A DNA stretch of 64,000 nt, taken from assembly GCA_044450885.1 (NCBI GenBank), contig JBIOJL010000001.1:446-64445 (forward strand), given 5' to 3'. The translations under genes were made by a program, and so were the position numbers. This document shows, piece after piece, positions 33,199 through 48,627 of the stretch. Below the pieces are notes generated by a model, which made no database searches, was not told the origin of the DNA, and was given only the letters and a program-made list of their open reading frames with translations. How positions within the stretch are numbered: position 1 is the first letter of the stretch; every line of letters begins with the position of its first letter. The stretch comes from Tepidisphaerales bacterium (GTDB lineage: Bacteria > Planctomycetota > Phycisphaerae > Tepidisphaerales > Tepidisphaeraceae).

Positions 33199-33212
33199 TA
33201 TTGGAGGCGAAG

Positions 33213-33728
33213 ATGAAACGAGTCAATTTACTCGTGGCTGGTCTTGTTTTGTTCCTGGCGGGAACGGCGGCCAGTGCCGCACCGGTCGTCAGTGTCGGGC
33301 ATGTGTATGCTCCGCTCAACGGCACGCTGAGCTTCCAGTTGACGGTTTCCGACGCGGGCAATGCCGCGGCCGAAGACATCGAAGGCATGCTCCTGACGCT
33401 GCAGATCGCTGACGGCACGGGCACGACTCCCAAGGTTCAGTCCATCGACATGCTCACCGGAACCATCTGGACCGGCCATGGATCCTCCGCGATCGTCCCC
33501 GATGGCGGCAATGAACCGCAGTTCGCCTCCCGGAGCATCATCACGGATGCATTCGGAGACTATGTGAACGCCAACGGGGTGACCCCTTCCGCCAGGCGAC
33601 GAATGCGGACGGGGGGCGGGCGGTCATTTCCGCAGGTCGTGCATGATCGCGATCACGCCCCCCGCGTGGCTGATGGCCTCGTAGACGCCGCGGTAGTCCT
33701 TGTAGGTCAGCTTCTTGTCACAGCGTAG
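33213..33728 (+). CDS. Small secreted protein, possibly cohesin-like; 3' end doubtful
   Basis: GGAGG at 33203-33207, ATG at 33213, signal peptide MKRVNLLVAGLVLFLAGTAASAAP. The beta-rich body is LSFQLTVSDAGN...MLLTLQIADG. The last ~35 codons overlap the convergent exbD and look like read-through. Confidence 0.45.
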   Translation: MKRVNLLVAGLVLFLAGTAASAAPVVSVGHVYAPLNGTLSFQLTVSDAGNAAAEDIEGMLLTLQIADGTGTTPKVQSIDMLTGTIWTGHGSSAIVPDGGNEPQFASRSIITDAFGDYVNANGVTPSARRRMRTGGGRSFPQVVHDRDHAPRVADGLVDAAVVLVGQLLVTA

Positions 33729-34031
33729 GCGCACTTCGCAGTCCCGCGGATTGCTCCGCGCGGCCAGGATTCCCTTAAGCTCGGTCTCCAGCGTGCCGGA
33801 ACTGCCGACGAGCTGGCCGTTCAGATAGATCTTCGCCTCGCGGTCGACGATCACGGTGACGGGCGAATCGGTCTTGCCGGTGCGGGACAGTTGGGGAAGC
33901 ACCACGCTCAGCCTGTCGCGCATGAAGGTGCTGGTGAGCATAAAGAAGAAGATGATCAGGAAGGCGATGTCGGCCAGGCTGATCATCTGCGTCTCTTTGA
34001 TCGGCTCAGTTCTTCGGCGTGCGAGTTTCAT
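33624..34031 (-). CDS. exbD: ExbD/TolR-family biopolymer transport protein (copy 2)
   Basis: MKLARRR...ISLADIAFLIIFFFMLTSTF (single TM), then VTVIVDREAKIYLNG...VRLRCDKKLTYKDYRGVYEAISHAG. ATG at 34031. Confidence 0.85.
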   Translation of the reverse strand: MKLARRRTEPIKETQMISLADIAFLIIFFFMLTSTFMRDRLSVVLPQLSRTGKTDSPVTVIVDREAKIYLNGQLVGSSGTLETELKGILAARSNPRDCEVRLRCDKKLTYKDYRGVYEAISHAGGVIAIMHDLRK

Positions 34032-34434
34032 CGCGGCGCTCCTCTGAAATAAGCACGACCCCGCCGGCCTGCTGGATGGCGTACAGAATGTCGCCGTTGC
34101 GCTGAAACGACAGGTCGTCGGCCGGGAATACCACGACGGCCCGCTGGTCCTCGCTGGCCGCGCCGGCCAGCAGGCCGCGCAACTGCAGTTCCAGGTCGCC
34201 CAGCGGAACGGGCATGCCGTTGACCGCAAGCCTGGATTCGCCGGCCTCGATGCGGATCGGCTTGTCGATGGTCTTCTCCGGCGAAATCGTCGCCGTCGGC
34301 AGGGCGACGGTCAGCGACAGGTTGCTGACGAACGTCGAGGCGATCAGGAAAAAGATGATGATCTGCCACGCAATGTCGGCCAGCGTGATGAAGGGGATGT
34401 AAGGGCCGGGGCGATGGTGGCGGACGAGTCTCAT
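34006..34434 (-). CDS. exbD: ExbD/TolR-family biopolymer transport protein (copy 1)
   Basis: ITLADIAWQIIIFFLIASTF, then IRIEAGESRLAVNG...VVVFPADDLSFQRNGDILYAIQQAG. Overlaps the next exbD by 26 nt. Confidence 0.85.
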   Translation of the reverse strand: MRLVRHHRPGPYIPFITLADIAWQIIIFFLIASTFVSNLSLTVALPTATISPEKTIDKPIRIEAGESRLAVNGMPVPLGDLELQLRGLLAGAASEDQRAVVVFPADDLSFQRNGDILYAIQQAGGVVLISEERRDETRTPKN

Positions 34435-34465
34435 GTTTCCTCGATGACAGACAGGAATGCCTGTC

Positions 34466-35110
34466 CTACTGCTGCGACTGCTTGTCCAGGATTCGCTCGA
34501 CCAGGGCGGTGCCGGTGGACTGCACCTGCAGCACGAAGCGGTTGACGCGGCTGACGAAGTAGTTGTATTCGACCGTGGACATGGCCGCGACGATCAGGCC
34601 GCCGGCCGTGCAAAGCAGGGCCTCGGAAATGCCGCCGGCGACGGCCTCGGGCGTCATGTTGCCGACGCTGTGAATCGAGCCGAAGGCGCGGATCATGCCG
34701 AAGACGGTGCCCATCATGCCCAGGATCGGAGCGAGGCTGGCACAGGTGGCGAGGATGGTCAGATGACGTTCCAGGTAGTCCACGACGTGGCCTCCGTGGT
34801 CTTCCATCGCCTGGGTGATGCCTTCCTCGATCTCCTCGGGGCGCTTGCCGATGCGCTCGAGGAACACCAGCTTGCGCAGGCCGATGCCCAGCGTCTCAGC
34901 CACCGGCCCGCCGGTTCGCTGGCAATGGCCGATGGCGCCGTCGAGGTCGGCGCGTTCCATGGCCTTGGACAGTTCGTTGAGAAGGTCTTCGCTGTCGACG
35001 TCGGCCTTGCGCATCACCAGCCAGCGTTCGAAGGTGACGCCGAGGCTGATGATGGAACAGGCGGTGATGACCCAGAGAGCCCAGCCGCCGCGAATGATGA
35101 AGTCGAGCAT
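34466..35110 (-). CDS. exbB: MotA/TolQ/ExbB proton-channel protein
   Basis: Three TM helices and the family core LATCASLAPILGMMGTVFGMIRAF...GGISEALLCTAGGLIVA. Confidence 0.9.
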   Translation of the reverse strand: MLDFIIRGGWALWVITACSIISLGVTFERWLVMRKADVDSEDLLNELSKAMERADLDGAIGHCQRTGGPVAETLGIGLRKLVFLERIGKRPEEIEEGITQAMEDHGGHVVDYLERHLTILATCASLAPILGMMGTVFGMIRAFGSIHSVGNMTPEAVAGGISEALLCTAGGLIVAAMSTVEYNYFVSRVNRFVLQVQSTGTALVERILDKQSQQ

Positions 35111-35128
35111 GTGTCACCTGTACAAATC

Positions 35129-35206
35129 GTGATCGGTTATCAGTGATCGGTGATCGGTACAGACTACCGATCACTGATCACCGATCACTGCTCACCGATC
35201 ACTCAC
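35129..35206. repeat. Head-to-head heptanucleotide array (GTGATCG x4 facing TCACCGA x4) forming a long imperfect palindrome
   Basis: gtgatcg gttatca gtgatcg gtgatcg gtacaga ctaccga tcactga tcaccga tcactgc tcaccga tcactca. It fills the spacer between the TPR gene stop and the exbB start. Confidence 0.8.
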
Positions 35207-36910
35207 ATCCACGTCCGGAACGTTATACCGCTGTTCCAGCACGGTGTGCGCGTGGCTGGCTTCCGGCGTGTGGGGGTACTTGCGGAGCACGAGGCGATAC
35301 GTCGCCACCGCGCGCTGGCTGTCGTTCTTCTCCTCGTGGCAGTTGGCGATCTCCAGGTACGCCCGGCGCACGGCGTTGGCAGCGCCGGCATAGTCCTGGA
35401 TGAGCCGCTCGTAGGCCGCGACCGCCTCATCCTGCTTCTTCTGCACGCGCAGGAGCGAGCCGAGCCGGAAGATCGCCCTGACGCTGCGCTCCTCCTCACT
35501 CGGGAAACGGGCGAGCAGTTCGCGGAGCGTGGCGACGGCCGTAGCCGGAGTGTTCATCAGGCCCGACTCGAGATCGGCCCGTTCGAGCAGCGCTTCGGCG
35601 CTGACGGCCGGCGAGTAGAAGCGCTTGACGATCTCGGTGAGTTCCTTCTGGCCGGCCGGCAGGTCTTTGGTTTTCGCGAGTTTGCCGTAGTAGGTGGCGG
35701 CGACGAGAAAATGCGCGGCGGGTTTGCTGTCGAGCAGCCAGTATGCCTCGCGGGCCTTGGGCGCGTCGCCGCGGGATTCATGGAGTTCGCCGACCATGAC
35801 CTTGACCTTCTCGACATCGGCGCCGGTGCGGTAGTCGCCGATGAAGGTCATCAAGCGCGGTAGTTCGGTCTTGTGCAGGTCGCACAGGGCGAATTGCGCC
35901 CAGCGCCGCAGGCGCTCGCATTTGTCGGCGATGTGCCGCAGCACCTTGTCCTTGTCGTCCGGCCCCTTGGCGCCGATGGCCGCCGCGATCTGCTGGATGA
36001 GCGCGTCGGCCGCGGCGGCGGGTGGCTCGGTGCTGATGACTTCGTTGAGCAGCACGAAAAGGTTGGCCGTGCCCGGGCGGGAGGCGTATGCCGCGAGCGT
36101 CAGGCGATAGGCCAGCGGTTTCTCTTCCCTGGGCAGGCGGCGGATCAGCGCCAGGGCGTCGTCGTGGCGATCGAAGGCGATGTAGGCCTGCACGACGCGG
36201 GAAATGGCCTCGGCGCGGGATGGGAGTTGCAGCAGCAGTTTCACCGCGGCGTCGACTTCCTTCTTCTGGATGAAGAGGCTGGCCGTGAAGAGGATGGCAT
36301 CGTTGTAGGCGGCCGTCGCGGTGCTGTCGCCGGCAAAGTCGGCCGGCTTCTTCTCGAGGATCTTCGCGTAGTTCTCGGCCACCTTGCCAGGCTTGTCCAA
36401 GGCGGAGTAGCTGTCGATCTGGGCCCGCAGGGCGTGCAGGACCAGCGGGCTGTTGGGGAAGTCGTTTATGACGAAGTTGAATTCCTTGATCGCTTCGTTG
36501 TGGAACTTGCGTTTCTGCTGGGTGAGCGCGACCCAGAGTTGCACGCGGTCGGAGCGGGGATCCTTGGGGTACTTCTCCATGAAGTCGTAGAGACGATCGA
36601 CCAGGTCCTGGGACGGCGCATCCTTGGCGTAGAACCCGGCGATGCGTTCAAACTCGCGGGCGGGCGCGACGCCGGGGGCGACGGCGTCGCCATCGGCGGC
36701 GAGAACGGGGGAGGCGGTCAGGAAACACAGAAAGAACAAAGGGATTGAGGCACGAAGGCACGAAGGCACGAAGTGGAAGAAAGAAAGGACGCAAGCGACA
36801 GGGAACGGAGACAGGCGAGGCGAGGCAAAGAACGCCGCGGAGTACCGCGGCACACGGGCAGGATGCCCGTGCCACCATGTGGCTGGCATGAAGCCGGTTT
36901 GTGTGTTCAT
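35192..36910 (-). CDS. TPR-repeat protein (~572 aa), secreted/periplasmic
   Basis: YbgF-like TPR units (e.g. FMEKYPKDPRSDRVQLWVA, VINDFPNSPLVLHAL, LLARFPSEEERSVRAIF, VLRKYPHTPEASHAH). ATG 36910 forms an ATGA overlap with the upstream stop and has GGAG upstream. An alternative GTG 36769 lies just before the signal-like SIPLFFLCFLTASPVLA. A REP-like hairpin (36853-36871) and a GGCACGAA x3 array (36749-36772) in the first 140 nt argue for the shorter form. Confidence 0.75.
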   Translation of the reverse strand: MNTQTGFMPATWWHGHPARVPRYSAAFFASPRLSPFPVACVLSFFHFVPSCLRASIPLFFLCFLTASPVLAADGDAVAPGVAPAREFERIAGFYAKDAPSQDLVDRLYDFMEKYPKDPRSDRVQLWVALTQQKRKFHNEAIKEFNFVINDFPNSPLVLHALRAQIDSYSALDKPGKVAENYAKILEKKPADFAGDSTATAAYNDAILFTASLFIQKKEVDAAVKLLLQLPSRAEAISRVVQAYIAFDRHDDALALIRRLPREEKPLAYRLTLAAYASRPGTANLFVLLNEVISTEPPAAAADALIQQIAAAIGAKGPDDKDKVLRHIADKCERLRRWAQFALCDLHKTELPRLMTFIGDYRTGADVEKVKVMVGELHESRGDAPKAREAYWLLDSKPAAHFLVAATYYGKLAKTKDLPAGQKELTEIVKRFYSPAVSAEALLERADLESGLMNTPATAVATLRELLARFPSEEERSVRAIFRLGSLLRVQKKQDEAVAAYERLIQDYAGAANAVRRAYLEIANCHEEKNDSQRAVATYRLVLRKYPHTPEASHAHTVLEQRYNVPDVDVSDR

Positions 36911-39900
36911 CGCGGCTCCACAACCTGTTCCAGCGCCATGCGCGAGAGGTTGGCGTATTCGCTTCTTGGGTAATCGTAGATCACGCGCTGGAGCAGTTCG
37001 CGGATCTTCTCCGGCCGCAACACCACGATTCCCCTGGGGGCCTTGCTCAACTGCTGCATCTGGATCAGCGTGGCCGCGTGCCAGTAGAGTAGCGCCGGCA
37101 TATCCTTGTCGCTGGCGGCGAAGATCTTCTCCGTCTGCACGAACCAGGCGACGGCCTCGTCGGGGCGGGAGGAGACCGCCAGCCACTGCCCGGCCTTGAG
37201 CGCCACCGGGCCGGCGTTCTCGTGCTTGGGAAACTTCTCGACGAACTTCTGGGCGATCGACACCGCGTCGGCGAACTGCTCGCCGCGGGCGAAGTAGTTC
37301 ATCATGCGGATCATCGCCATGGGCACGTGCGGATCGTCGGGGTGGTGATAGGTGAGCAGCACGTAGGCATCGGCCGCCTCGTCGAACCGTCCCATGTTCT
37401 CCAGCGCCTGGCCGACCTTGAAGCGGGCCCTGGCGACGAATTCGGACTTGGGCCAGCGGGTGACGATCTCCTGGAATCTCGCCAGCGCCTCGCGGTGGTT
37501 ACCCTTGAGTGACTGAATGTTGCCCAGGTAATAGTTGGAACTGGCGGCGAGGGCATCTTCGGGAAAACGCGTGACAAGCTGCGAGAAGTAGTCGGTGGAC
37601 TCGACGAGGTATTCATCCGCCCGCTCGTACGCGCCGGCCAGATACAGGCGCCGGCCGATCTGGTAGGCCGACTGGCCGGTGCGATACCAGAGCTTCATTT
37701 CCTCCTGGGCATCCTTGAACTGGCGGGAGAAGCCTTCGACGGTGCCGTCGGTGCCGCCGGACACTTCCAGCCGCACGGTCTGCGCCGCAGACTGAGCGCG
37801 CGTCTCGCGCAGGTAGTCCATGTAGGTCACCTCGATGGTGCCGCCGTAGCTGGCCTGTAGCACATCGTCGTTCGGTTTGGCCGCGGCGTTGTCCGTCTGG
37901 ATCTTGCCGCGGAAAACGCCGCTGTGCGGCTCGGTCTCGGAGAGCATGAGGATTTCCCGGTCGCCGCCGGAGGATTTGACGACGACGGCCACCTGGCCGA
38001 TGGCGGCCGAACGGTCGGCGTCGAAATCGACAACCTGCACGTAGATCGGCTCGCCGAGGCGGAATTTCGAGATCGAGTCGAGATATCCGGCGTTGGTCAC
38101 CGTCAGCGTGGCATCGGACGCCAGCGCGACGTAGGCCACGCGCTCGACATTTTCCGGCGGCGCCTGCCTGGGATTCTGGTAGTCGACGATCACCTCGCCG
38201 CCGGGGACGATGCTGACGGCGTCTTTGTCCTCGGCGTCGTCGCTGGCCTTGGTCGGCACGCGGACTTTGTATTTGCCGGAGGCGTCGCGTTTGGCCGCGA
38301 CGGTCACCTTCTGGATGAGCCGCCCGGCCACGCTGCGGATGCGCACCTCGACGCTGGCGGCCGGGAGGTCCGGGTCGTCAATGATGAGGTCGAACGGCTG
38401 GCCGGGCGTGAGCGGGCCATCCGCCGGGTCGGGCACAGCGGCGGGCTGCGTCGTCGGCATCGGCGCGTTGGGGGCGTCGCTCGCGCCCAGGGCCTTGAGC
38501 CGCTCGATGCGGCCATTGAGCCGGTCGATGTGGCTGGTCAGGGCGGCGATGGTCTCCTTCAGAGTGTCGGCCTCGCTGAGCGCGCCGTCGGTGGGCGCGG
38601 TCGTCGGCGCCTTGGCCGGGGCGGCCGCCTGGCGCTTCTTGAGTATCTCGCGGCGTTCCTCGAAGAGCGTTCGTTCGGCCGCGTACGCCGGCAGACGCGC
38701 GTTGAGTTCCCGGCGCAACGTCGCCAGCCGCTGTTCCTGGGCGGCCATCGCGCGGCGGTTGGGGTTGGCGAGGTTGATCACGGGGATCACGGGTTCACCG
38801 TCGGGTTTGGCAATCGCCTTCGCCCTGGCGGGCGCTTTGCCGGTCGCGTCGTCGGCCACGGCGCGGGTTTGCAGGTCGGCCGTGGGGACGCGGACGTCGG
38901 TGTATGAGACACGAATGATGTCGTCGCCGTATACGGCAAGTTCATTGGCCGGGGCGACCTTCGCGGGATCGCCCAGGCGGCGTTCGGGCTGGGTGTCGCC
39001 GAGCACCAGGTCGAGCTGCTGCGAGGCGACGCCGGGGGCGGTGCATGGGAGCATCAATTCCTGGGCCACGTTGCCGATCAGCGTGTTGATCTTCACCGTC
39101 ACGCCCGTGGCGGCGTTCGCCATGGCGTCGGGATCGTGGATCGCCAGCGTCAGCCGGCCTTTGCCGGCCGGACGAACCGCGACCGGAATCTCGCTTGCCT
39201 CGGTTGGTTTGATCTCGAACGGCCAGGCGCTGGTGACGGCCGGCAGGTTCTGCCAGTCGCCGGCGGTGGGCTGGTTCTCCAGCACGCTCAGGTAGCGGAA
39301 GGTCTTGTAGCCCGGCTGCATGTTCTGCTGGTCGAGGTACTTGAACCACACCAGGTCGCCCGGCCGGACGTAGAGCAGCCGGGGGTTGTCCCTGGCCTCG
39401 GGATTGGCCGAGAGCGACAGCGGCGCGGCGAAGACGCCGGTCGAGTTGCCGGTTTCCGTCAGTTCCAGCAGTTGCCGGGCGCCGGTTTCGCTGAAGGCTT
39501 CCACATGCGCCGTGTCGGGGTTCGGCGTCACATCCAAGTCGGGATCGTTCAGCATGATGTGGGGCGAAGCGCCCAGATCCAGCCGCCAGGCGGGGCGGAA
39601 GTTCGTACCCTTCGCTTCCAGGTCGGCCGGTTTCACCAGCGACAGCACGCCGTTGTGGTAGCGCGCGCCCAGGCGGCGCGACTGGCGCACGACCGGGACT
39701 CCCGGGGTTTCGTTGTCCACATCCGTGTACCGTGCGAACACGGTCTGGCCGACGTTGAACTCCAGCACGGATGCGTTGTCGGCGCCGGCGGGGGCGACGT
39801 CGGCCGGGAGAAGCTGGTTGCCCTGGGTGTCGGTGAGGATGATCTGCCCGATGGCCGGGGCGTCGCCGCGGAATTTGGCGATGTCGATGCGGATGGTCCG

Positions 39901-41769
39901 GGCGGAGGCGCCCTTGAGATCGACGGCGTTGCCGGTCGGCTGCGACTGGTCCGTGAGCCGGATGACCTTCTCCGGCCCGTCGCCGCGCAGGGTGATGGTC
40001 AGGTCGGTGGGCATGTTCTTCACCGCCAGCCGATCGTCGCCCGATCCCCACAGCAGCCTGGCCAGCGATGCCTGCTGGTGCAGATCGATCTCGATGTAGG
40101 GCGCTTTGTCGCCCATCTTGGCCTGCCAGAAGGTGAGTGCTTTCACCTGCGGCGGACGAACATTGGGCTGGGTCGTGGGCGCAGGGCTGTTGGCGTCGAC
40201 GTCGATGGCGCTGAAGGCCGGGTGGCCGGGGGTTTCGGAACTGGCGGTGATGGTCGGGCCGGACGACGCGGTCGGCACGCTGCCGACGAAGACGCCGGTG
40301 CGCGGGCCGGTTTCGGTCAGGCGCACGGTGACCACGCTTTCCCGGCCGCCACCCTGGGCGACCACCTCCGCGGTCACCGGGTCCATGCGCTCGAGGTCCG
40401 CGTCGACAATCTGCACGTAGACCGGCGAGCCGGGATTGAGCGTGCCGCTGCTGCTCTTGCCGGCGGCCACCGCCGGGCGTTCATCCCTCGGCGCGGGTGC
40501 CGCGCCCTCGGCTCTGGGCATGTCGCGCTGAAATCGCGGCGGAGGGTCGGGCAGTGGCACGCTGTCGATGTTGATGGCCCCGTCATCGACCACCTTGATC
40601 TTGTGGACCTTGCCCCCCTGCTCGCCGTAGGTCAGCTCGATGACGTCGCCGCCGCCAACCTGCAGCACGCCGTCGTTGAGCGCCGGCATCGCCAGCGCCG
40701 TGCGGATGCGGCCGACGTAAAGCTGGTCGCTCACGGGGTTCTTCTCGAGCCGCACGGTTTCCCTGTCGCCCGATGACGCCGACAGCGTCGCATTCACCAC
40801 CGTCGAACGCGTGCGCGTGAAGTAGTTGGAGTCGTACACCTTGACGATCAACTCGTCGCCCGGCCGGACGCGCGTCTGCATGGCCGCGCCTACAACGGAG
40901 CATGCTTCGTACAACTTTTTCGCCTCGAGGAAATCGCCGCTGTCGAAATAGATCTGCCCGACAAGGAAGATGGCCCGCTTGACCATCTCCGTCTCGCCGT
41001 AGCGGTTCCAGAGCTTGCGGAAGGTGGCGATGGCCTGGTCGGTCTGCTTGAGCTGCACGTAGGCCCGGCCGAGGTGGAACATGGCCATGGCGGCGATCGC
41101 GGGATCTTCCGCCTCAACCAGCGACAGCAGCTTTTCCCGGGCGGCATCCGCCTGGTTGGCCAGCAGCAGCACCTGTGCATCGCCCAGGTCGGCGTACACC
41201 AGCGCCCGGCGCGACTGCGTGGTGCGGCGCAGCAGCGCCAGTTCCTCCTTCGCCGGCTCGATCCGCGCCTGCCGCATCATCACCTCGGCGCGCCGCAAGC
41301 GCAACATGCCGCGATCCGGCGATTGCAAGTTCTCGCCGTAGAGTTCGCCCGGGAGGCCGTAGAGCTGAAGCGCGATATCCTGTTCCTCTTTGGTCCCCTG
41401 CGCAAAGTGGTAATCCCCTGCGGCCACGAACAGCGCCACCGGCGGCTTGAACGACGCGAAATCCGGGCGGGCTCGGGCTGCGTCAAGCAGCGCCGCCGCC
41501 TTCGCGCCATCGTTGGCGCGCAACGCTTCCATGGCCTCGGCCAGGATTTGGGGCGTGGTCTTCACCGCCGGCGCTGCGGCCGGAGCCGCCGCGGGCGGCT
41601 TCTTCACCTGGGCGAAGAGAGACGCGGGAACCAGGAAGAACAAAGCGAGGGCGAGGAGAGGAATTTCAGATTTGAAATTTGAAATTTGAAATTTGAAATT
41701 TGAACTCGCAAATCCCAGATTTGCATTTTGCACTTTGCACTTTGCATTTTGCATTTTCCCGCTACTCAT
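36907..41769 (-). CDS. Giant TPR protein (~1620 aa) with repeated beta-rich modules and coiled-coil/Pro-rich segments
   Basis: N-terminal signal-like IPLLALALFFLVPASLFAQ. TPR units at both ends (C-terminal VTRFPEDALAASS, IVTRWPKSEFVARA, VEKFPKHENAGP, IYDYPRSEYANL). Internal modules carry (L/S)(T/S)ETGP.TGVF motifs. ATG 41769 overlaps the upstream stop (ATGAGTAG); alternative ATG at 41754. Confidence 0.8.
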   Translation of the reverse strand: MSSGKMQNAKCKVQNANLGFASSNFKFQISNFKSEIPLLALALFFLVPASLFAQVKKPPAAAPAAAPAVKTTPQILAEAMEALRANDGAKAAALLDAARARPDFASFKPPVALFVAAGDYHFAQGTKEEQDIALQLYGLPGELYGENLQSPDRGMLRLRRAEVMMRQARIEPAKEELALLRRTTQSRRALVYADLGDAQVLLLANQADAAREKLLSLVEAEDPAIAAMAMFHLGRAYVQLKQTDQAIATFRKLWNRYGETEMVKRAIFLVGQIYFDSGDFLEAKKLYEACSVVGAAMQTRVRPGDELIVKVYDSNYFTRTRSTVVNATLSASSGDRETVRLEKNPVSDQLYVGRIRTALAMPALNDGVLQVGGGDVIELTYGEQGGKVHKIKVVDDGAINIDSVPLPDPPPRFQRDMPRAEGAAPAPRDERPAVAAGKSSSGTLNPGSPVYVQIVDADLERMDPVTAEVVAQGGGRESVVTVRLTETGPRTGVFVGSVPTASSGPTITASSETPGHPAFSAIDVDANSPAPTTQPNVRPPQVKALTFWQAKMGDKAPYIEIDLHQQASLARLLWGSGDDRLAVKNMPTDLTITLRGDGPEKVIRLTDQSQPTGNAVDLKGASARTIRIDIAKFRGDAPAIGQIILTDTQGNQLLPADVAPAGADNASVLEFNVGQTVFARYTDVDNETPGVPVVRQSRRLGARYHNGVLSLVKPADLEAKGTNFRPAWRLDLGASPHIMLNDPDLDVTPNPDTAHVEAFSETGARQLLELTETGNSTGVFAAPLSLSANPEARDNPRLLYVRPGDLVWFKYLDQQNMQPGYKTFRYLSVLENQPTAGDWQNLPAVTSAWPFEIKPTEASEIPVAVRPAGKGRLTLAIHDPDAMANAATGVTVKINTLIGNVAQELMLPCTAPGVASQQLDLVLGDTQPERRLGDPAKVAPANELAVYGDDIIRVSYTDVRVPTADLQTRAVADDATGKAPARAKAIAKPDGEPVIPVINLANPNRRAMAAQEQRLATLRRELNARLPAYAAERTLFEERREILKKRQAAAPAKAPTTAPTDGALSEADTLKETIAALTSHIDRLNGRIERLKALGASDAPNAPMPTTQPAAVPDPADGPLTPGQPFDLIIDDPDLPAASVEVRIRSVAGRLIQKVTVAAKRDASGKYKVRVPTKASDDAEDKDAVSIVPGGEVIVDYQNPRQAPPENVERVAYVALASDATLTVTNAGYLDSISKFRLGEPIYVQVVDFDADRSAAIGQVAVVVKSSGGDREILMLSETEPHSGVFRGKIQTDNAAAKPNDDVLQASYGGTIEVTYMDYLRETRAQSAAQTVRLEVSGGTDGTVEGFSRQFKDAQEEMKLWYRTGQSAYQIGRRLYLAGAYERADEYLVESTDYFSQLVTRFPEDALAASSNYYLGNIQSLKGNHREALARFQEIVTRWPKSEFVARARFKVGQALENMGRFDEAADAYVLLTYHHPDDPHVPMAMIRMMNYFARGEQFADAVSIAQKFVEKFPKHENAGPVALKAGQWLAVSSRPDEAVAWFVQTEKIFAASDKDMPALLYWHAATLIQMQQLSKAPRGIVVLRPEKIRELLQRVIYDYPRSEYANLSRMALEQVVEPR
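41661..41757. repeat. Two adjacent heptanucleotide arrays (ATTTGAA x5; GCA(T/C)TTT x5) inside or at the 5' end of the giant TPR gene
   Basis: 7-nt periodicity over ~98 nt. On the coding strand this gives MQNAKCKVQNANLGFASSNFKFQISNFKSE, immediately before the signal-peptide hydrophobic core. Confidence 0.85.
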
Positions 41770-44713
41770 CTTTCCCTCCCCGCTTCTGGTTGATGAAGTT
41801 GATGTGCTTCTGCGCCTTGGCCGCCAGTTCCGTCGCATTCTGTTCCTCGACCACGCGATAGAATGTCTGCAATGCCTCGGAACTCAGCCCGAGTTTGTAC
41901 TGGCAGATGCCCTTCTGGAGCAGCACCTCGCCGAGGTTGGGCGAATCGGGATAGTCGATCAGCACCCGCCCGAAGTATTCCAGCGCCCGCCGGTGGTCGC
42001 CGATGGAGACGTAATACTCGGCCACTTTTGTGAGCCCCTTCGCGGCCAGCACGGAATCGGGGTATTGCTTGGCCAGCCGTTCGAAGACGTCGAGGCCGGT
42101 CTGGCCGGCGGCGATCTTCGCCCGACCGATCATGAACAGCGATTCCGGGGCGAGCGGGCTGGTCGGGAATCGTTTGACCAGATCCTCGAACTCGGTGATG
42201 GCCCGGGTCAGATCGCGGTTGATACCCGGTTTGCCGCCGGCCGCGACGTCCTGTTCGATCTGCTTTTCGCCACGTTCCAGGCTCGCCTGGCCCATGGCGA
42301 ACATCGCATCGCCGATGTATTCGCTCTTGGGATAGCGGGCGATCAGCGTCTGGCAGGCCGCCACCGCTTCATCCAGAAGCCCGGCGTAGAAGTAGATGCG
42401 CCACGAATGATGCAGTGCCTCTTCCGCCAGGCCGCTCTTGTCGCCGGCCTTGGCCACCTCGTTGCAGTCGGCCTGAGCCGACGCCAGAAACTCGCGCCCG
42501 CGCCGGGCGAGCCCGAGGTCGAGATAGATCTTGCCGATTTCCCCGGCCGCCACGGCGCGTCGCAGTTTGGCCTCCATGTCCAGCGGCGTCTGCCGGTATT
42601 TCACGGCCGCCACTTCACCGCCGGCGTCGGCGATGCAGTCCACGGTCTTGGCCAGCACCCAGCCATCGGGATGCCGGATGGCCTTGACATCCACATACGC
42701 CATCCGTAGCGAGCACAGCCCGTTTCGGGACTTCTCGTTCCGCAGCGACAGCGAAGCGCCGCCATCGCTGATGAGGCCTTCTTTGGTGACGGGAACCACC
42801 TTCTGGAAGATGCCCGTGTGCGTCCCGGTTTCCGTGAGGGTCACCTTGATCGAGGCCGCGCCTTCCGGCACGAGCGGCACCGCCCTGGCCTGCTCCGTGG
42901 CCTCGCTCGTTTCGCCGGGCGTGGCCCGTTGCGTTGTCGGCGCGGCGGCCGATGCGACCGCCTCCCGCAGTTCCGCCGTCCGCTGATCCACGATCGGCAC
43001 GGCCGCCAGCACCACCGTCACCGTGTCCGGCCGGTCGGAAACGTCCGCATCGAAATCCTCCACCCGCAGCATGATCTCCGAGTTGAGGACCACCTGCTGC
43101 GCCGGCTCCTGCCCGTCGCGCGTGAGGATGTCGATGATCGCATCTGATGCCACTTCGACTACGTCCTTGCGAATCGCCTTGTCGGGTGGATTGGGACCGT
43201 TTGGTCCGACCTCGTCGTAGTATTCAATCTCGATCCGGTCGCCGCCGCTGAGTTCCAATCGCTGGAACTGCCGCTGCAGCAGCCGCCCCCAGACCGACAG
43301 CGTCGACAGCCTGGCGTCGATGGTGTCGATGTTGGTGGGAGTCTTGGCGACGGCCAGCCGCATCTGCAGGATTTCGTTCTCGGTCATGCCGCGTTTGTCG
43401 GCTTCCCCGGCCGTCGCGGCCGCCGGGACGGCCGGCTCATCTTCGTCCATTCCCGCGAGCGGCCTGGCGGCGGCGGTCTGGAACGGATCGGCGACCGGTT
43501 TGGGCACATCGCCTTCTTCGGCCGCCGGCATCGTGGTGGGCACGGTTGTCGGAGCGGTCGTCGGCCGTTTGCCCGCCACGGCCGCGAGCGATTGTTCCGG
43601 CGCCCACGCCGCAAGCGTCTTCTCGAACGCCGCGTAGGCCGCGTCAATTGTCTTGCAGGCCTCGGCGTTCATCGCCTTTGCCTTCGCCATCAATTGTTCG
43701 CTCTCGGCCACCAGCGCCGCCCGTTTCTTCTCGGTCCCGGCCGGGTTCACGATCTTCTGCGTCGACCGTTCCAGCTCGAAGGCATCCTCCGCCTTCTGCT
43801 TGCCCGCCTGCTGCATCTGCTCGGCCTCGGCAAGCTGGGCGCGGAGTTTCGCGGCCGTGGCTTCGGAGAAGATGTCTTTCAGATCCCCGCTGTGGCGCGG
43901 CGCGCCCAAAGCCGTCGGTATGGTCGCGATGAACACCGGGCTGCGCTGTCCGAGCGGCTCGAGTTCCACCACCTCGACGTCCCCCGATGTCGTCCTCACG
44001 GTCGCCGTCACCGTTCGCAGTGTTTCGCCGACGTTCACGTCGGCATCTGTAACCCGCAGATACAACCGCTGTCCCGGCGAAATCCGGCGGTGGGCCGCGG
44101 TCTTCTCGCCGATCACCGTCCCGACCATGCGATACGCCTTGAGCGCCTGCTGGTACTGCTCCATCGCCAGATGCGCATCGCCGATCGCCTGATACGCCTG
44201 GTTCACCAGCGGATGCCCCGGATGCCGGTCGATGAACCGGCGGAACTGGCTGAACGCTTGGGTGTACAGCTTGCCCGCAAGGCAGGATTGCCCGACCATG
44301 AAATCGCAGCGCACGCCCGCAGCCGTCTCGTCGTCGTTCGCGGCCGAATCCGCCGCCGCGGCCGCCCGGCGATAGTGCGTGGCCGCCTCCGCGTATTTCT
44401 TCGCCTCGAAGCTGCAATCACCCAGCCGGGCGTGGGCCCGCACCGTGAGGTCGGAGTTCGGATAACCGGTCAGCACTTTCTGGAACAGTTCCGCCGCGCG
44501 GCCCAGGTCGCCCACAAGGAAGGTCGTGTCCGCGGTGCGGAACAGGTTGGCCGCCTCCTCGCTCACGCGGCTCTCGCGCCGGTTCGCCAGGCGCGCCTCG
44601 CGGTCCGACGGCTGCGTCGCCGGCGGTTCCTTCCGCGCCGCCGCCATGGCGGCGATGGCGGCCAGAAACAGAAGCAGACATCGTGACGACGTTATACTAC
44701 AATGGTGGGTCAT
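41762..44713 (-). CDS. Large TPR protein (~983 aa) with coiled-coil, Pro/Thr-rich linker and beta-rich modules
   Basis: ATG 44713 (MTHHCSITSSRCLLLFLAAIAAMAAA). N-terminal TPRs (VLTGYPNSDLTVRA, FIDRHPGHPLVNQA). C-terminal YbgF-like TPRs (LIARYPKSEYIGDA, LVKRFPTSPLAPES, LAKQYPDSVLAAKG, LIDYPDSPNLGEV). Central linker PTTAPTTVPTTMPAAEEGDVPKP. Confidence 0.8.
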   Translation of the reverse strand: MTHHCSITSSRCLLLFLAAIAAMAAARKEPPATQPSDREARLANRRESRVSEEAANLFRTADTTFLVGDLGRAAELFQKVLTGYPNSDLTVRAHARLGDCSFEAKKYAEAATHYRRAAAAADSAANDDETAAGVRCDFMVGQSCLAGKLYTQAFSQFRRFIDRHPGHPLVNQAYQAIGDAHLAMEQYQQALKAYRMVGTVIGEKTAAHRRISPGQRLYLRVTDADVNVGETLRTVTATVRTTSGDVEVVELEPLGQRSPVFIATIPTALGAPRHSGDLKDIFSEATAAKLRAQLAEAEQMQQAGKQKAEDAFELERSTQKIVNPAGTEKKRAALVAESEQLMAKAKAMNAEACKTIDAAYAAFEKTLAAWAPEQSLAAVAGKRPTTAPTTVPTTMPAAEEGDVPKPVADPFQTAAARPLAGMDEDEPAVPAAATAGEADKRGMTENEILQMRLAVAKTPTNIDTIDARLSTLSVWGRLLQRQFQRLELSGGDRIEIEYYDEVGPNGPNPPDKAIRKDVVEVASDAIIDILTRDGQEPAQQVVLNSEIMLRVEDFDADVSDRPDTVTVVLAAVPIVDQRTAELREAVASAAAPTTQRATPGETSEATEQARAVPLVPEGAASIKVTLTETGTHTGIFQKVVPVTKEGLISDGGASLSLRNEKSRNGLCSLRMAYVDVKAIRHPDGWVLAKTVDCIADAGGEVAAVKYRQTPLDMEAKLRRAVAAGEIGKIYLDLGLARRGREFLASAQADCNEVAKAGDKSGLAEEALHHSWRIYFYAGLLDEAVAACQTLIARYPKSEYIGDAMFAMGQASLERGEKQIEQDVAAGGKPGINRDLTRAITEFEDLVKRFPTSPLAPESLFMIGRAKIAAGQTGLDVFERLAKQYPDSVLAAKGLTKVAEYYVSIGDHRRALEYFGRVLIDYPDSPNLGEVLLQKGICQYKLGLSSEALQTFYRVVEEQNATELAAKAQKHINFINQKRGGKDE

Positions 44714-44846: not shown

Positions 44847-47063
44847 CTACTGTGGCGCCACAACCTCGAACGGTATCGCCGGCAACATTCCAAGCGGCGT
44901 ACGCCGTTTGGCCGCCTTACCGGTCTCCGTCCCGGATTCCGAAGATACCGCCGCAACCGCATTGACGAGCAGGTTCCCCTTCAGGCCGGGTTTGGCCTTG
45001 GCGGCATCGCATTGGAGGACGATTTCCGTGCCCTCTCCAGCCGCGGACACACCCTGGATGGCGATGCCTTCCGGCGGATCGCTCAAGACGCATTCAATCT
45101 CGCCGCCGGCAGCGCCCCCGGGAATTTCGACCTGCACGCGGATTGTCCCACCGGAGGGAATCTTGACGGGGACCGCGCTGAGAATTCTCGCCGTCTTGCC
45201 CGCCCCGCGCCCGGAAACCACGGCCTTCAGTTCCCTGGCGACGACCAGATGCCGATAGGCGAACGCCTGCATCATGTCCTCGGCGGGCATGGCCCGGCGG
45301 ACCACCTCCCGGCCGTCGATAGTCGCGCGGCCCTCGAAACTCACGCCCACCGGCTGCCGCGCGCCCGCCGACGGGGCGGTCAGCGTCAGCCGCACCTGCT
45401 CCAGATTCCCCGGCACCCAGCCACCGCTCAGGGCGAAGCCGGGCGGGGCATCCTTCAATTCCAGGGCAATGTCGCCGGCAAACCCGTCCCGCCGCAGAGC
45501 ATAAATGGTGACGGGTACAATTTCGCCGCCGCGCAGGCTGATACTAGATGGCACCACCCGCAGCCCGAAATCCGGCCGGGGCGCGCTGATCCGCAGCCGA
45601 TATCCATACTCCGGACCGCCTTTGCGCTGGGCATCGCCCAGGTGCAGGTAATAGGTTCCATCCGCCGGCAGAGTGAATTCGATCAGCGAATCCGCATGGT
45701 GCGTCATCAGCCCGGCGCCTTTGTCCTCGTGGTCGTCGTTGAACGCCAGTTGTTTCCCGGCCGCGTCCGTCAGCCGCAGCACCGAATCCAGCGGCGAGTT
45801 CAGCCGCCGCGCGTTTACCTCGGCTACGATCTTCTCGCCCGCCCGGCCATCGAAACGGAACACGTCCCAGTCGCCCGGGAAGTCGATCCGCCCGTTGATG
45901 ATGATGGGCAGCGTCACCCGTTGTGCCTGCTCGCGCGTGTTGTTGGGTTCCTGCTCCACGCACTCGGGCAGAGTGTCCACGGCAAAGGGGACGAGGTTGG
46001 AAACCACATCCTCGTTGCGGACGGAAAGCAGGACAATGCCCGGCGATTTCGTATTCGGCACCAGACTGGACCTCGGGAAATTCCAACCCCGGACATCAAC
46101 CGTTGCCTGAGCGCCGACGGCGCAACCCAGCGGGAAGATGCTGGTGATAAAGGGAATCTCACCCATGGTGATGCGGTAGACGAAGTCCTCGCGGCCGCGG
46201 TAGAGGGCATCCTTGATCTCAAGGACGTACTCGCCGTCCGTGGGTATCTTGTAGTAGAGAACGGGGTCGGGATTGAAACGAAAATCGTCGGCGTATCCGA
46301 GCACGTCGCCCCTGGCATCGTACAGCGTGACGGCGGCCTGGAACCAGCCGGGGACGGCGTCGGCGATATACGGGATCAACTCGCGGGCGCTGACCGCCAC
46401 GACGAGCCGCTGTCCCTTGCGGGCCTTGAAGCGGAAGCGGTCCTGTTCGCCGGGCATGATCTGCCCGTTGACGATGGCCGGCAGCGTGACGTTCGTCATG
46501 CTGCCCGGGCCGCTTGATTCCGCCTCGTGGAATTCGGGCAACTGGCCGATGCAGAACACGAACGGATTCGACCACCCCGCGGGCGTCCCCAGCCGCAGAT
46601 CCCGCTTGCCGGGCTCGGCGTTTGCGGCAATCACGACGTGGACGATCACCGTCTCGGCCAGCGCCGGGCTGGCCGGTTTTCTCTGCGAGGTGTTGAGTTT
46701 CCTGCTGATTTCCGCCGCCAGTTTCTCGTCCGCGGCCGTCCACACGGGCCTCGTGGAAGCCACCGCTCCGCCCCGGGACACCGCCTGCCGCTTCTCCTGC
46801 AGTTCCTTCAACTTCGCTCTCAAAGCGCCGATCTGTCCCTGCGACAGCGGTTTGACATGTTCGACCACGGCCGCCCGCACGCCCGTGCCCGAGACACTCG
46901 CGCTGGTGATGCCATCCAGATGCTGCCCACCGACCGCAATATCAAACTCCGTCCCCTGTCGCCCGCCGGCCGGGTAGATGTAACCGATGCGCGGAGTGCG
47001 ATCCTGGGCGAGCGCGGGTAGCGAGATCGCGAGCATCAGCAGAAGAGAGCGGGTTGAGAACAT
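44847..47063 (-). CDS. Secreted protein with two PPC (pre-peptidase C-terminal)-like domains
   Basis: Signal peptide MFSTRSLLLMLAISLPALAQD. EQDRFRFKARKGQRLVVAV...DGEYVLEIKD and GDWDVFRFDGRAGEKIVAEV...DGTYYLHLGD are PPC-like. Confidence 0.75.
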   Translation of the reverse strand: MFSTRSLLLMLAISLPALAQDRTPRIGYIYPAGGRQGTEFDIAVGGQHLDGITSASVSGTGVRAAVVEHVKPLSQGQIGALRAKLKELQEKRQAVSRGGAVASTRPVWTAADEKLAAEISRKLNTSQRKPASPALAETVIVHVVIAANAEPGKRDLRLGTPAGWSNPFVFCIGQLPEFHEAESSGPGSMTNVTLPAIVNGQIMPGEQDRFRFKARKGQRLVVAVSARELIPYIADAVPGWFQAAVTLYDARGDVLGYADDFRFNPDPVLYYKIPTDGEYVLEIKDALYRGREDFVYRITMGEIPFITSIFPLGCAVGAQATVDVRGWNFPRSSLVPNTKSPGIVLLSVRNEDVVSNLVPFAVDTLPECVEQEPNNTREQAQRVTLPIIINGRIDFPGDWDVFRFDGRAGEKIVAEVNARRLNSPLDSVLRLTDAAGKQLAFNDDHEDKGAGLMTHHADSLIEFTLPADGTYYLHLGDAQRKGGPEYGYRLRISAPRPDFGLRVVPSSISLRGGEIVPVTIYALRRDGFAGDIALELKDAPPGFALSGGWVPGNLEQVRLTLTAPSAGARQPVGVSFEGRATIDGREVVRRAMPAEDMMQAFAYRHLVVARELKAVVSGRGAGKTARILSAVPVKIPSGGTIRVQVEIPGGAAGGEIECVLSDPPEGIAIQGVSAAGEGTEIVLQCDAAKAKPGLKGNLLVNAVAAVSSESGTETGKAAKRRTPLGMLPAIPFEVVAPQ

Positions 47064-47143: not shown

Positions 47144-48556
47144 TCACATGATCTCCTTCAGCCTCCCGCCCATCGGCATCCCTTCATCCGGGCCGGCGGT
47201 CACACGAACGGGGGGGCCACCGGGGTTGGGCAAGTTGCCGTCGGGGTCGATCCCGAGCATCTCGTACATGCTGGCGATCAGATCCACTGGATAGACCGGG
47301 CGGTTCTTCACCGTTTCACCCCTGGCGTCGGATTCGCCGACCACGATGCCTCCCTTGAAGCCGCCGCCGGCGAGCGCCGCGCAGAAGCATCGGCCGTAAT
47401 GCCCGCGTCCGCCGTCCCACGGCGGCTGCCAGTCGATCTTCGGCGTCCGGCCGAATTCGCCGCTCCACCAGACAATCGTCGTGTCGAGCAGGCCGCGATC
47501 CGAGAGATCCTGCAGGAGCGCCGCCATGCCTCTGTCCATCTGCGGCAGTTTCTGTCGCATCTGCTGGAAATGCTGCGAGTGGGTGTCCCATCCGCCGTAA
47601 TTGATGGTGATGTAGGGGAACCCGCGCTCGACCAGCCGGCGGGCGACCAGGCACGACTGCCCGAACGTATTCCGGCCGTAGGCCAGCCGCACCTCGTCCG
47701 ATTCCTCCTCGAGGTCGAACACCTTGCCCTCATCGCCCAGGATCAGGTCGTACGCCTGTTTCCCCGCCTGCTCCGAAGCAACAAGCTCCGGATCATTCTT
47801 CACGGCCCGATCGAGCGTACCGAGATTGTGGAGCAGGTCGCGCCGTCCTTCCTGCCGCTGGCGAGTGATGCCTTCGGCGATGATCCCTTCCACGGCGAAC
47901 TGGGCCGCCCCCGGATTGCCGCCCGTCGCAAACGGCTTGTACTTCGGGCCCAGGAAGCCAGCTTCGGAAAACCGCCCCTGCGGCTGCGTCAGCACGATGT
48001 AGGGCGGGATCAGCCCTTTGTAGCCGGCGTCGTAGCCCTTGAACAGCGACACCACTGCGCCCACGGATGGATACAGCAACTTCTCACCAGGTTTGCGGCC
48101 GGTCTGCACCATGTACGCCGCCGTCTCGTGGCCGTCGTTGCCGTGGGTCATGCTGCGGATGATGGAATACTTGTCGGCCTGCTGCGCCAGGAGGGGCAGC
48201 AACTCGCAGATGCGGATGCCCTCCACATTCGTGGCGATCGGCTTGTCCAGCGGGCCGCAGTAGTCATGGCCCGCCTCCGGCTTGGGGTCGAACGTATCCA
48301 GGTGCGATGGCCCGCCCCACATCCAAATCTGGATCACCGACTTGGCCTTCCCCTTGCCGCCGGCCGTTCGTGCCGCCGGCCGGGTTGTCGGCAGGCCAAG
48401 CACGTTGGGCGCCAGAAACGTCGGCCGCGTCGTCGGCTGCACCTGTCCCAGCACGTTGCCGGCCAGCATCGCCCCCGCCGCGCCACACAGTCCGCGTTGC
48501 AGGGCAAGACGCCTCGAAATCCGCCCGTCACCCGAGTCTATCGCGTCATGTTTCAT
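47144..48556 (-). CDS. DUF1501 (sulfatase-fold) protein with twin-arginine signal
   Basis: ISRRLALQRGLCGAAGAML (TAT-like), IQIWMWGGPSHLDTFDPKP, WDTHSQHF, WSGEFGRTP. ATG at 48556. Confidence 0.9.
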   Translation of the reverse strand: MKHDAIDSGDGRISRRLALQRGLCGAAGAMLAGNVLGQVQPTTRPTFLAPNVLGLPTTRPAARTAGGKGKAKSVIQIWMWGGPSHLDTFDPKPEAGHDYCGPLDKPIATNVEGIRICELLPLLAQQADKYSIIRSMTHGNDGHETAAYMVQTGRKPGEKLLYPSVGAVVSLFKGYDAGYKGLIPPYIVLTQPQGRFSEAGFLGPKYKPFATGGNPGAAQFAVEGIIAEGITRQRQEGRRDLLHNLGTLDRAVKNDPELVASEQAGKQAYDLILGDEGKVFDLEEESDEVRLAYGRNTFGQSCLVARRLVERGFPYITINYGGWDTHSQHFQQMRQKLPQMDRGMAALLQDLSDRGLLDTTIVWWSGEFGRTPKIDWQPPWDGGRGHYGRCFCAALAGGGFKGGIVVGESDARGETVKNRPVYPVDLIASMYEMLGIDPDGNLPNPGGPPVRVTAGPDEGMPMGGRLKEIM

Positions 48557-48566
48557 AGCGCACCTC

Positions 48567-48627
48567 GTAGGGTGGGCACTGCCCACCATCCGTGTTCGCA
48601 ATCCATGGTGGGCAGTGCCCACCCTAC
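48567..48627. repeat. Perfect 23-bp-arm inverted repeat (GTAGGGTGGGCACTGCCCACCAT / ATGGTGGGCAGTGCCCACCCTAC)
   Basis: Arms at 48567-48589 and 48605-48627 with a 15-nt loop. Each arm is itself palindromic (GGTGGGCA/TGCCCACC). It fills nearly the whole DUF1553-DUF1501 spacer. Confidence 0.9.

Follow-up and report, generated by a model that had tools for sequence, protein, structure and literature searches.

The locus described here raises a simple question: what does a proton-driven stator of the ExbB/ExbD type act upon, when the genes that accompany it encode very large tetratricopeptide repeat (TPR) proteins and no recognizable TonB or TolA? The genes concerned lie on contig JBIOJL010000001.1 (positions 446 to 64,445 of the forward strand) of a Tepidisphaerales bacterium (assembly GCA_044450885.1), and the whole of this 64,000-nucleotide stretch is referred to here as the window. 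A preliminary description, made from the sequence alone, had pointed to six co-directional genes, three of them encoding TPR proteins (TPR1, TPR2 and TPR3), one encoding ExbB and two encoding ExbD, as an uncharacterized envelope machine driven by the proton motive force. That main proposal holds, and no function has been described for the cluster. Its mechanistic detail, in which the TPR proteins would replace TonB or TolA, is probably wrong. As shown below, the TolQ-like ExbB and two ExbD proteins have been inherited, in three phyla, together with two or three TPR/β-sandwich proteins predicted to be exported. The feature is real, and it belongs, as a new variant, to the Ton/Tol/Agl family of 5:2-motor systems; it is widely conserved, and uncharacterized, in the Planctomycetes-Verrucomicrobia-Chlamydiae (PVC) superphylum. 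We tentatively read the six genes as the core of a PVC-specific cluster for a trans-envelope machine of the Tol/Ton type, most likely with a housekeeping role akin to that of Tol-Pal, and place the likelihood of this reading a little short of even.

A TolQ-like stator with two classes of ExbD

The six genes follow one another on the minus strand, and their G+C content at third codon positions is of the coding type (0.79-0.89; coordinates in Table 1). Pfam and NCBIfam results agree with the gene identities. The overlaps between stop and start codons were verified in the sequence: TPR1 and TPR2 share gATGAGTAG, TPR2 and TPR3 share ATGA, and the two exbD genes overlap by 26 nucleotides (nt). ExbB is a clear member of Pfam MotA_ExbB (PF01618, 6.8e-30) with three hydrophobic segments. 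In NCBIfam it scores higher with the TolQ model (107 bits, cut-off 221) than with the ExbB model (68 bits), both below cut-off; the ExbB equivalog models TIGR02797 and TIGR02805 score below theirs. Its closest relative of solved structure is TolQ (8odt, 2e-18, with residues 15-196 aligned), and the Thr residues of its 'GTV' and 'CTAGG' motifs align with both lumen threonines of TolQ. The two ExbD proteins match Pfam ExbD (PF02472) at 4.8e-12 and 3e-16, and both carry the membrane Asp within L-A-D-I-A. ExbD2 is nearer to TolR than to ExbD (NCBIfam TIGR02801, 1.5e-9), the best TolR score being 38.6 bits against a cut-off of 127.3, and no sequence match was found in the PDB for either paralog.

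Comparison of 52 related loci reveals that first and second ExbD proteins constitute two positional classes. Identity is 42-44% inside a class and 25% across classes, the nearest neighbor from another locus belongs to the same class for 100 of the 104 proteins, and the membrane Asp is present in all 104. The window conforms to this pattern, with ExbB followed by one member of each class. Since the two classes separate in this way, the duplication that gave rise to them is older than the split of the PVC phyla. That both classes are ancient, and that the membrane Asp is invariant in each, argues for a heteromeric 5:2 stator in which an ExbB pentamer obligately encloses a heterodimer of ExbD1 and ExbD2, with the stoichiometry extrapolated from solved Ton and Tol motors.

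Giant scaffolds built from TPR and β-sandwich modules

The three remaining proteins had been described as large TPR proteins with YbgF/CpoB-type units. The assignment of these units is borne out by the NCBIfam model for the YbgF TPR region (TIGR02795), which scores 120 bits for TPR1 and 111 bits for TPR2 against a cut-off of 90.1. A BamD-type TPR model also scores above its cut-off, and the full-length CpoB model (NF008068) reaches 30-60 bits against a cut-off of 383. The overall picture of TPR proteins, on the other hand, stands only in part. In TPR1 and TPR2, repeats (TPR_6, YfiO) are confined to the two terminal parts, and the middle of each protein is made of β-sandwich modules, of which a hidden Markov model (HMM) of the module counts about six copies in TPR2 against two in TPR1, with D-x-D-x-D and E-T-G-x-x-[ST]-G-x-F as signatures. 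The coiled-coil and Pro/Thr-rich stretches previously noted are similarly present, but they amount to a single long helical hairpin in TPR2 and to short linkers, respectively.

In TPR1, a signal-like segment and an N-terminal TPR region precede two β-sandwich modules, separated from each other by a helical and Pro/Thr-rich region, and the protein ends in TPR of the YbgF/BamD type. It is homologous from end to end, in two segments, to the product of a TPR gene of about 775 amino acids (aa) located before the giant gene of a planctomycetal locus (L002). TPR2, the giant scaffold, comprises a signal-like segment, an N-terminal TPR region (~60-290), a chain of β-sandwiches and a C-terminal YbgF-type TPR region (~1354-1620). 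An AlphaFold2 (AF2) model of residues 280-1400, based on 35 homologs, has a mean predicted local distance difference test (pLDDT) score of 81.7 and depicts a string of β-sandwiches with a β-rich, discoidin-like block and the helical hairpin mentioned above, located before the C-terminal TPR. The Pfam match of the discoidin-like block to F5_F8_type_C is weak in TPR2 (3.8e-4) and clear in a verrucomicrobial homolog (9.2e-13), and the domain is precomputed in many orthologs. A PA14 domain was found in one homolog.

Structural searches of the TPR2 core with Foldseek return an S-layer protein of Nitrosopumilus (N. maritimus; 1.5e-23) and arrays of macroglobulin (MG) domains from α2-macroglobulin and complement proteins; TM-scores are low, as is expected for flexible rods. 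The β-sandwich module, which lacks a Pfam model of its own, matches the Kustd1514 S-layer family of anammox bacteria in NCBIfam (1.3e-15). A search with the TPR2 core among 1.84 billion representative sequences yields 182 matches at E<=1e-30, which points to a specific family of moderate size. The module at residues ~1210-1350 of TPR2 also occurs in 10-32 tandem copies in proteins of 3000-6100 aa (P0213-P0215, P0221, P0247, P0256 and others).

TPR1, TPR2 and TPR3 each possess one hydrophobic segment, which is N-terminal and followed by an Ala-X-Ala-like site or small residues, and no second membrane segment. In TPR2, a short Pro/Ala stretch comes after this segment. In TPR3, conservation among aligned orthologs starts directly after the hydrophobic segment. 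The single N-terminal segment and this conservation pattern suggest that the three proteins are exported by the Sec pathway to the periplasm. The N-terminal extension implied by the ATGA start of TPR3 is not conserved in orthologs, and the true start of the gene may thus lie downstream. A positional equivalent of TPR3, of about 550 aa, ends the cluster in other PVC loci.

Comparative genomics of the cluster

A scan of one genome per GTDB species, conducted with a 12-sequence alignment and seeded with two peptide patterns, identified 268 relatives of TPR2, and the best 76 loci were examined. Full-length orthologs of TPR2 present 45-87% identity, and relatives of 2400-2800 aa present 22-28%. Carriers include Tepidisphaerales and other Phycisphaerae; Pirellulaceae, Planctomycetaceae, Gemmataceae and planctomycetes of the Isosphaera type; and, beyond the Planctomycetes, Opitutaceae and other Verrucomicrobiota, together with Lentisphaeria/Victivallales. 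Loci were counted on our own gene calls, by scoring stop-to-stop open reading frames (ORFs) with seed HMMs, and annotated contexts agree with the results. In the Planctomycetia, exbB lies right after the giant gene in 30 of 32 loci, two exbD genes are present in 29/32, and a gene encoding a DUF4159 protein is found in 22 of the 24 loci where the flank allows its detection. All three features are seen in the three Lentisphaerae loci (3/3 each). The two verrucomicrobial loci have exbB after the giant gene (2/2) and DUF4159 (2/2) but a single exbD each (two ExbD, 0/2). Within the Tepidisphaerales, the pieces of the cluster are shuffled and yet remain together, with exbB in 8/10 loci and DUF4159 in 6/9.

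The usual gene order (TPR of ~800 aa, giant TPR, ExbB, ExbD1, ExbD2, small transmembrane protein, DUF4159, TPR of ~550 aa) is maintained, from the giant TPR onward, in Planctomycetia, Lentisphaerae and one unclassified bacterium, and permuted in the Verrucomicrobia. At the nucleotide level, synteny between the window and three relatives (L004, L008, L020) starts in TPR1 or TPR2, covers the genes up to ExbD2 and breaks off precisely at the stop codon of the latter. The recurrence of the same gene set in dozens of distant genomes indicates that the block is not a chance neighborhood, and the stator and the large TPR proteins can be considered one conserved unit, as had been surmised. The TPR genes are kept at orthologous loci, and no canonical TonB was found in the window or in the related loci examined.

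Several loci deviate from this scheme or call for comment. In a relative with 88% identity (L007), similarity stops just past exbB, after position 5752, and no exbD was detected; either the assembly is broken there, or this close relative has truly lost its two exbD genes. Two giant homologs in tandem (2801 and >2689 aa), with smaller TPR genes between them, occupy positions 10001-28406 of the metagenomic locus L005, with no stator within the stretch examined. A weak homolog of 2179 aa (P0039, locus L006) has no stator nearby and was treated as a different protein that shares modules with the family. The labels of several lake metagenome-assembled genomes (MAGs) look unreliable (L044, CAMAUZ010000002.1; L053; L057; L075), doubtful ones being 'Akkermansia muciniphila', 'Planctomyces sp. 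SH-PL62' and 'Singulisphaera sp. GP187'. Locus L044, labelled 'MAG: Akkermansia muciniphila', was discarded as a link to Akkermansia: it belongs to a lake verrucomicrobial MAG, and its proteins cluster with those of a freshwater Verrucomicrobiota MAG.

Candidate transducers in related loci

Pfam searches on 31 ORFs, which include the large coding-type ORFs of the window, detected no TonB_C, TolA, TolB, Pal/OmpA or TonB-dependent receptor, in agreement with the preliminary description, and the stator has no adjacent gene of the TonB_C or TolA type in any of about 50 related loci. The suggestion that the TPR proteins themselves take the place of TonB/TolA probably does not hold: each has a single N-terminal segment, and in relatives the stator is adjoined by genes for two dedicated single-pass proteins, namely a DUF4159 protein and a small protein with one transmembrane helix (TMH) and a Pro/Ala/Glu-rich tail. 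An equivalent pair follows ExbD2 in most loci other than L004. In locus L004, which is 87% identical to the window, two convergent genes after the stator encode a 166-aa protein, consisting of a TMH that contains His, one TPR-like hairpin and a Pro-rich tail, and a 530-aa DUF4159 protein.

A model of a compact DUF4159 protein (46 sequences, pLDDT 81.6) comprises a TMH at residues 27-52, a disordered region at 60-130 and an α/β C-terminal domain. The closest folds to this head are 4i66 (Hoch_4089) and, after it, class-I glutamine-amidotransferase domains, and the fold search gave no vWA match. An S-x3-H motif, which corresponds to the start of TonB's S-H-L-S signature, is found within the TMH in 26 of 45 homologs, one of them a protein from the Phycisphaerae, and its His is replaced by Tyr in Pirellulales-type proteins. 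The DUF4159 protein thus combines the topology of TonB/TolA with a different head, and is likely to be their substitute, instead of the TPR proteins. No description of a DUF4159-type cluster was found in a literature search.

Neither gene of this pair was detected in the window by Pfam searches on the 31 ORFs or by tblastn with the proteins of relatives. In this genome, they must therefore lie outside the 64-kb window or have been lost.

Relationship to known envelope systems

The cluster resembles Tol-Pal in several respects: its channel is nearest to TolQ, one of its ExbD proteins is nearest to TolR, its TPR units are of the YbgF/CpoB type and its products are predicted to reside in the envelope. 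It nonetheless lacks TolA, TolB and Pal, both in the window and in related loci, and it has two distinct TolR-like subunits where Tol-Pal has a homodimer. CpoB/YbgF is a small periplasmic protein that starts with a coiled coil and ends in a TPR region, whereas the TPR domains of the cluster follow different architectures and sit in proteins of 570-1620 aa with β-sandwich rods. All scores with the family-specific TolQ and TolR models of NCBIfam are, moreover, below cut-off. The likeness to Ton lies in the association of MotA_ExbB with an ExbD bearing the membrane Asp and in the TonB-topology protein encoded by relatives, the TMH of which often carries S-x3-H. As opposed to Ton, the cluster family examined contains no TonB C-terminal domain, the window has no TonB-dependent receptor, and the candidate transducer ends in a domain (DUF4159) that folds like class-I glutamine amidotransferases.

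The Agl-Glt machinery of Myxococcus combines one TolQ-like channel with two different TolR-like subunits (AglR/AglQ/AglS) and large TPR proteins (GltD/GltE). The preliminary description had drawn a parallel with this system, and the resemblance is best regarded as an analogy: the cluster shares the layout of one TolQ-like channel plus two distinct TolR-like subunits, with no implication of orthology. No Glt- or Agl-specific family, whether GltD/GltE, TonB-like GltG/J or outer-membrane GltA/B/H/K, appears among the Pfam/NCBIfam results for the cluster proteins. A conceptual likeness may also be drawn to PorL/PorM (GldL/GldM) of the type IX secretion system (T9SS), which involves a 5:2-type proton motor, a periplasm-spanning rod of immunoglobulin (Ig)-like domains and the TPR lipoprotein PorW/SprE. 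PorM is, however, membrane-anchored and constitutes the inner subunit of the stator, whereas the rods of the cluster would be separate exported proteins, and the match of the cluster to PorW is weak and restricted to the TPR level.

One similar published arrangement is that of PVC loci with a gene for a TPR protein, a tolQ-like gene, two heterologous tolR-like genes and a transducer made of a TMH, a linker and a vWA domain (Mol Biol Evol 2025, PMC12204202, section 8). The TPR-tolQ-tolR-tolR layout is common to both, as is the uncharacterized function, but giant β-sandwich scaffolds are not described there. Identity between the two was considered and rejected: the published Tichowtungia transducer is dissimilar to the window, to 82 loci and to the DUF4159 HMM, no Pfam domain was found in its sequence, the DUF4159 fold is not vWA, and no vWA-type transducer is present in the window. 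The two are parallel variants of one theme, and not the same family.

Within the same superphylum, the 'mucin transport gene' mul1A of Akkermansia muciniphila corresponds to Amuc_0544. According to a supplementary expression table, the MUL1 locus runs from Amuc_0543 and Amuc_0544 (both hypothetical) through an unnamed hypothetical gene to Amuc_0546 (ExbD/TolR), Amuc_0547 (hypothetical) and Amuc_0548 (MotA/TolQ/ExbB). MUL1, as this table presents it, thus resembles the cluster in that ExbB and ExbD genes from a PVC bacterium are interleaved with hypothetical genes, and it has been genetically tied to an envelope function that handles macromolecules. It differs in its single annotated ExbD and in gene order and apparent sizes, with the comparison limited to order and product names. 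No Akkermansia ortholog is found among 107 DUF4159 matches, and no Akkermansia protein was returned by a profile search with the giant protein that was swamped by TPR candidates. MUL1 may be seen as an intriguing functional analogue.

Proposed machine and alternative explanations

If the six genes act together as we propose, ExbB5 and ExbD1/ExbD2 would assemble, within the inner membrane, into a heteromeric 5:2 motor driven by protons, and single-pass transducers (the DUF4159 protein and the small TMH protein) would convey its work to the periplasmic TPR/β-sandwich scaffold. The β-sandwich rod would span the periplasm, the TPR ends would dock partners associated with the outer membrane or the peptidoglycan, and the discoidin domain of TPR2 would bind a glycan. 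In a lineage devoid of Pal, TolA and TolB, the system would in this manner couple the two membranes and the cell wall to one another. A Tol-like role is favored by the affinities to TolQ, TolR and YbgF, by the absence of Pal, which has been reported for Planctomycetes (PMC12204202 SI), by the rigid gene order across phyla, and by the lack of a linked transporter or enzyme. A role in the import of specific substrates seems less likely by comparison.

A number of observations weigh against this proposal. With the presumed transducer genes absent from the window, the machine as modelled is incomplete here, and relative L020 lacks the same genes within 10 kb as well. Docking of the TonB type would not be universal either, given that the His of DUF4159 is replaced in Planctomycetia and that the small protein there has no His. 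One Lentisphaerae bacterium is reported to have both TolB and Pal (PMC12204202 SI), and Verrucomicrobia and Lentisphaerae carry the cluster; it therefore cannot simply be a replacement for Tol-Pal. The discoidin and PA14 domains suggest glycan binding, which fits uptake or the handling of surface polymers as well as it fits binding to the wall. Finally, cleavage of the N-terminal segments of TPR1-3 was judged by eye, and the survey frequencies, derived from a pattern-seeded scan and from the best 80 of 268 hits, are not unbiased.

The ambiguity of the glycan-binding domains leads to an alternative that we hold to be unlikely, though not negligible, in which the motor powers the capture of large glycans or glycoproteins and their import independently of TonB, across the outer membrane or into the enlarged periplasm, and the discoidin-bearing giant protein is the glycan-binding element, in the periplasm or close to the outer membrane. 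Besides the discoidin/NedA-like galactose-binding domains of the giant proteins and the PA14 domain of one homolog, import would be in keeping with the lifestyle of the carriers, which belong to polysaccharide-degrading PVC lineages, and with the GH2 and GH10 genes upstream in the window and the CBM9 or NPCBM genes near loci L001 and L003. The MUL genes of Akkermansia are, furthermore, reported to be necessary for intracellular mucin accumulation. Yet Amuc_0544 seems to encode a mid-sized, not a giant, protein, as read counts suggest, and aquatic Akkermansiaceae have no MUL1 synteny according to one paper, even though those lineages carry the cluster (L050). No hydrolase or outer-membrane channel or transporter gene is consistently linked to the cluster among related loci, and its gene order is fixed across phyla, unlike that of substrate-specific uptake loci. 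The opposite simplification, an ordinary Ton or Tol system with TonB or TolA elsewhere in the genome and the TPR genes as accessory, CpoB/BamD-like neighbors, strikes us as very improbable. Split tol/ton operons are common (PMC12204202 SI), the window covers only 64 kb and the TPR ends do match YbgF and BamD models. What consistently adjoins the stator in relatives, however, is the DUF4159 and small TMH pair, with no TonB_C/TolA-like gene in its place in about 50 loci, which makes a distant TonB unlikely; the TPR genes are translationally coupled to one another and co-inherited with the stator across phyla, and the reported lack of Pal in Planctomycetes speaks against it as well.

The matches of the β-sandwich module to S-layer proteins, bacterial and archaeal, raise a further option, namely that the motor moves or tensions components of a surface structure (S-layer, fibers, holdfast or an adhesin track of the gliding type), in the way of Agl-Glt or T9SS PorLM. 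The tandem arrays of the same module in proteins of 3000-6000 aa, the two giant adhesin-like genes that adjoin the cluster in the window and a layout of one channel and two TolR-like subunits that recalls AglRQS would all fit. We nonetheless deem this option improbable. The adhesin genes are convergent with the cluster and non-syntenic in relatives, and the fold matches are to generic Ig/MG-like arrays with low TM-scores. Apart from weak, partial matches driven by TPR (PorW/SprE, 33-37 bits against 250; PorE, 14.7 against 600 in NCBIfam), no Glt, T9SS or S-layer secretion component is present in the window, and gliding is, to our knowledge, not known in these lineages. An anti-phage defense motor of the Zorya type (ZorA/ZorB) was also considered and set aside, as PADLOC gave no match for any of seven proteins. 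A Tol-Pal-like housekeeping machine thus remains the reading that we prefer.

Genomic context

The window has about 65% G+C, and the best homologs of TPR2 come from Tepidisphaeraceae/Phycisphaerae MAGs, with up to 92% identity. As is usual in Planctomycetota, it encodes giant proteins with Ig repeats along with DUF1501, PSD1/PSCyt2 and DUF1559 proteins, and the GH2 and GH10 genes mentioned above lie a few kb upstream of the cluster. The PSCyt2/PSD1 and DUF1501 genes (Table 1) are upstream neighbors of the cluster here, and the same pair immediately precedes it in most Planctomycetia loci (L002, L035, L054, L063 and others) and in a close relative (L023), which may point to a functional tie between two uncharacterized families. 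A DUF1501 gene is also found in the verrucomicrobial locus L044, there after the cluster. The two giant adhesin-like genes converge on the cluster at the place where close relatives have the DUF4159 and small TMH genes, and the 3' end of the 177-aa ORF overlaps that of ExbD2 by ~100 nt. The row of YcjX-like, AAA_21 and DUF697 genes appears unrelated to the cluster.

The spacer between TPR3 and ExbB is predicted to fold, as RNA, into a strong hairpin of GTGATCG heptamers (-44 kcal/mol, z = -5.3), which is not followed by a T-run terminator. Tandem GTGATCG/GTGATCA heptamers are also intergenic at 50275-50323 and 53920-53946, and heptamer arrays in the window add up to 22 matches, against 2.6 expected. 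The hairpin may be an element similar to repetitive extragenic palindromes, or a signal for transcript processing or attenuation.

Table 1. Features of the six-gene block and of its surroundings in the window.
Feature	Position	Strand	Size	Remarks
TPR1	41762..44713	-	983 aa	Scaffold, predicted to be exported; Pfam, NCBIfam, module HMM, hydrophobicity
TPR2 (giant scaffold)	36907..41769	-	1620 aa	Pfam, NCBIfam, AF2 core model
Discoidin (F5/8 type C)-like domain of TPR2	39805..40254	-	residues ~506-655	Putative glycan-binding
Long helical hairpin (coiled-coil-like) of TPR2	38491..38763	-	residues ~1003-1093	AF2 model helices 724-770 and 787-814
TPR3	35192..36910	-	up to 572 aa	All-helical TPR protein, predicted to be exported
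TPR3/ExbB spacer	35111..35191	-	81 nt	GTGATCG heptamer hairpin
ExbB/TolQ-like proton-channel subunit	34466..35110	-	214 aa	Three TMH; MotA_ExbB
ExbD1	34006..34434	-	142 aa	Single TMH; positional class D1; Asp of 'LADIAW'
ExbD2	33624..34031	-	135 aa	Single TMH; positional class D2; Asp of 'LADIAF'
PPC-domain protein	44847..47063	-	738 aa	133 nt upstream of TPR1; syntenic only in closest relatives
DUF1501 protein	47144-48622	-		Pfam
PSCyt2/PSD1 protein	48630-50246	-		Pfam
Giant gene	10478-27739	+	5753 aa	~29 Big_13 Ig-like domains, FG-GAP repeats, β-helix
Adhesin-like gene	27838-33198	+	1786 aa	β-helix, PKD, Chlam_PMP repeats
177-aa ORF	33195-33728	+	177 aa	Clear signal peptide, no family match; follows the 1786-aa gene
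YcjX-like GTPase (DUF463), AAA_21/AbiEii-like ATPase and DUF697 (YcjF-like) membrane protein in a row	1218-5817	+

Implications for the PVC bacteria

Canonical TonB and TolA proteins are hard to find in several PVC lineages, which bears on how these bacteria energize outer-membrane processes such as cell division without FtsZ and the uptake of large polysaccharides without transporters of the SusC/D type. The partners of 5:2 motors were flagged as under-explored in the 2025 study mentioned above, which describes only the parallel, vWA variant (PMC12204202). The cluster described here widens the known range of partners of these rotary motors. It is conceivable, though we regard it as rather doubtful, that it constitutes a third, PVC-specific class of 5:2-motor trans-envelope system beside Ton and Tol, defined by an obligately heteromeric ExbD1/ExbD2 plug, by a new type of transducer that joins a DUF4159 protein, with its TonB-like TMH and its head of the glutamine-amidotransferase fold, to a small Pro-rich TMH partner, and by giant scaffolds, and devoted to a Tol-Pal-like job or to polysaccharide uptake. 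Were this the case, giant scaffolds made of TPR and Ig-like rods would bridge the unusually wide periplasm of planctomycetes, and would contribute to outer-membrane tethering or constriction where Pal and, in the Planctomycetes, FtsZ are lacking; alternatively, the machine would drive the uptake of whole polysaccharides that is observed in PVC bacteria and does not depend on TonB. More generally, the conserved cluster provides a concrete and testable candidate for the missing machinery that energizes the outer membrane in this superphylum.

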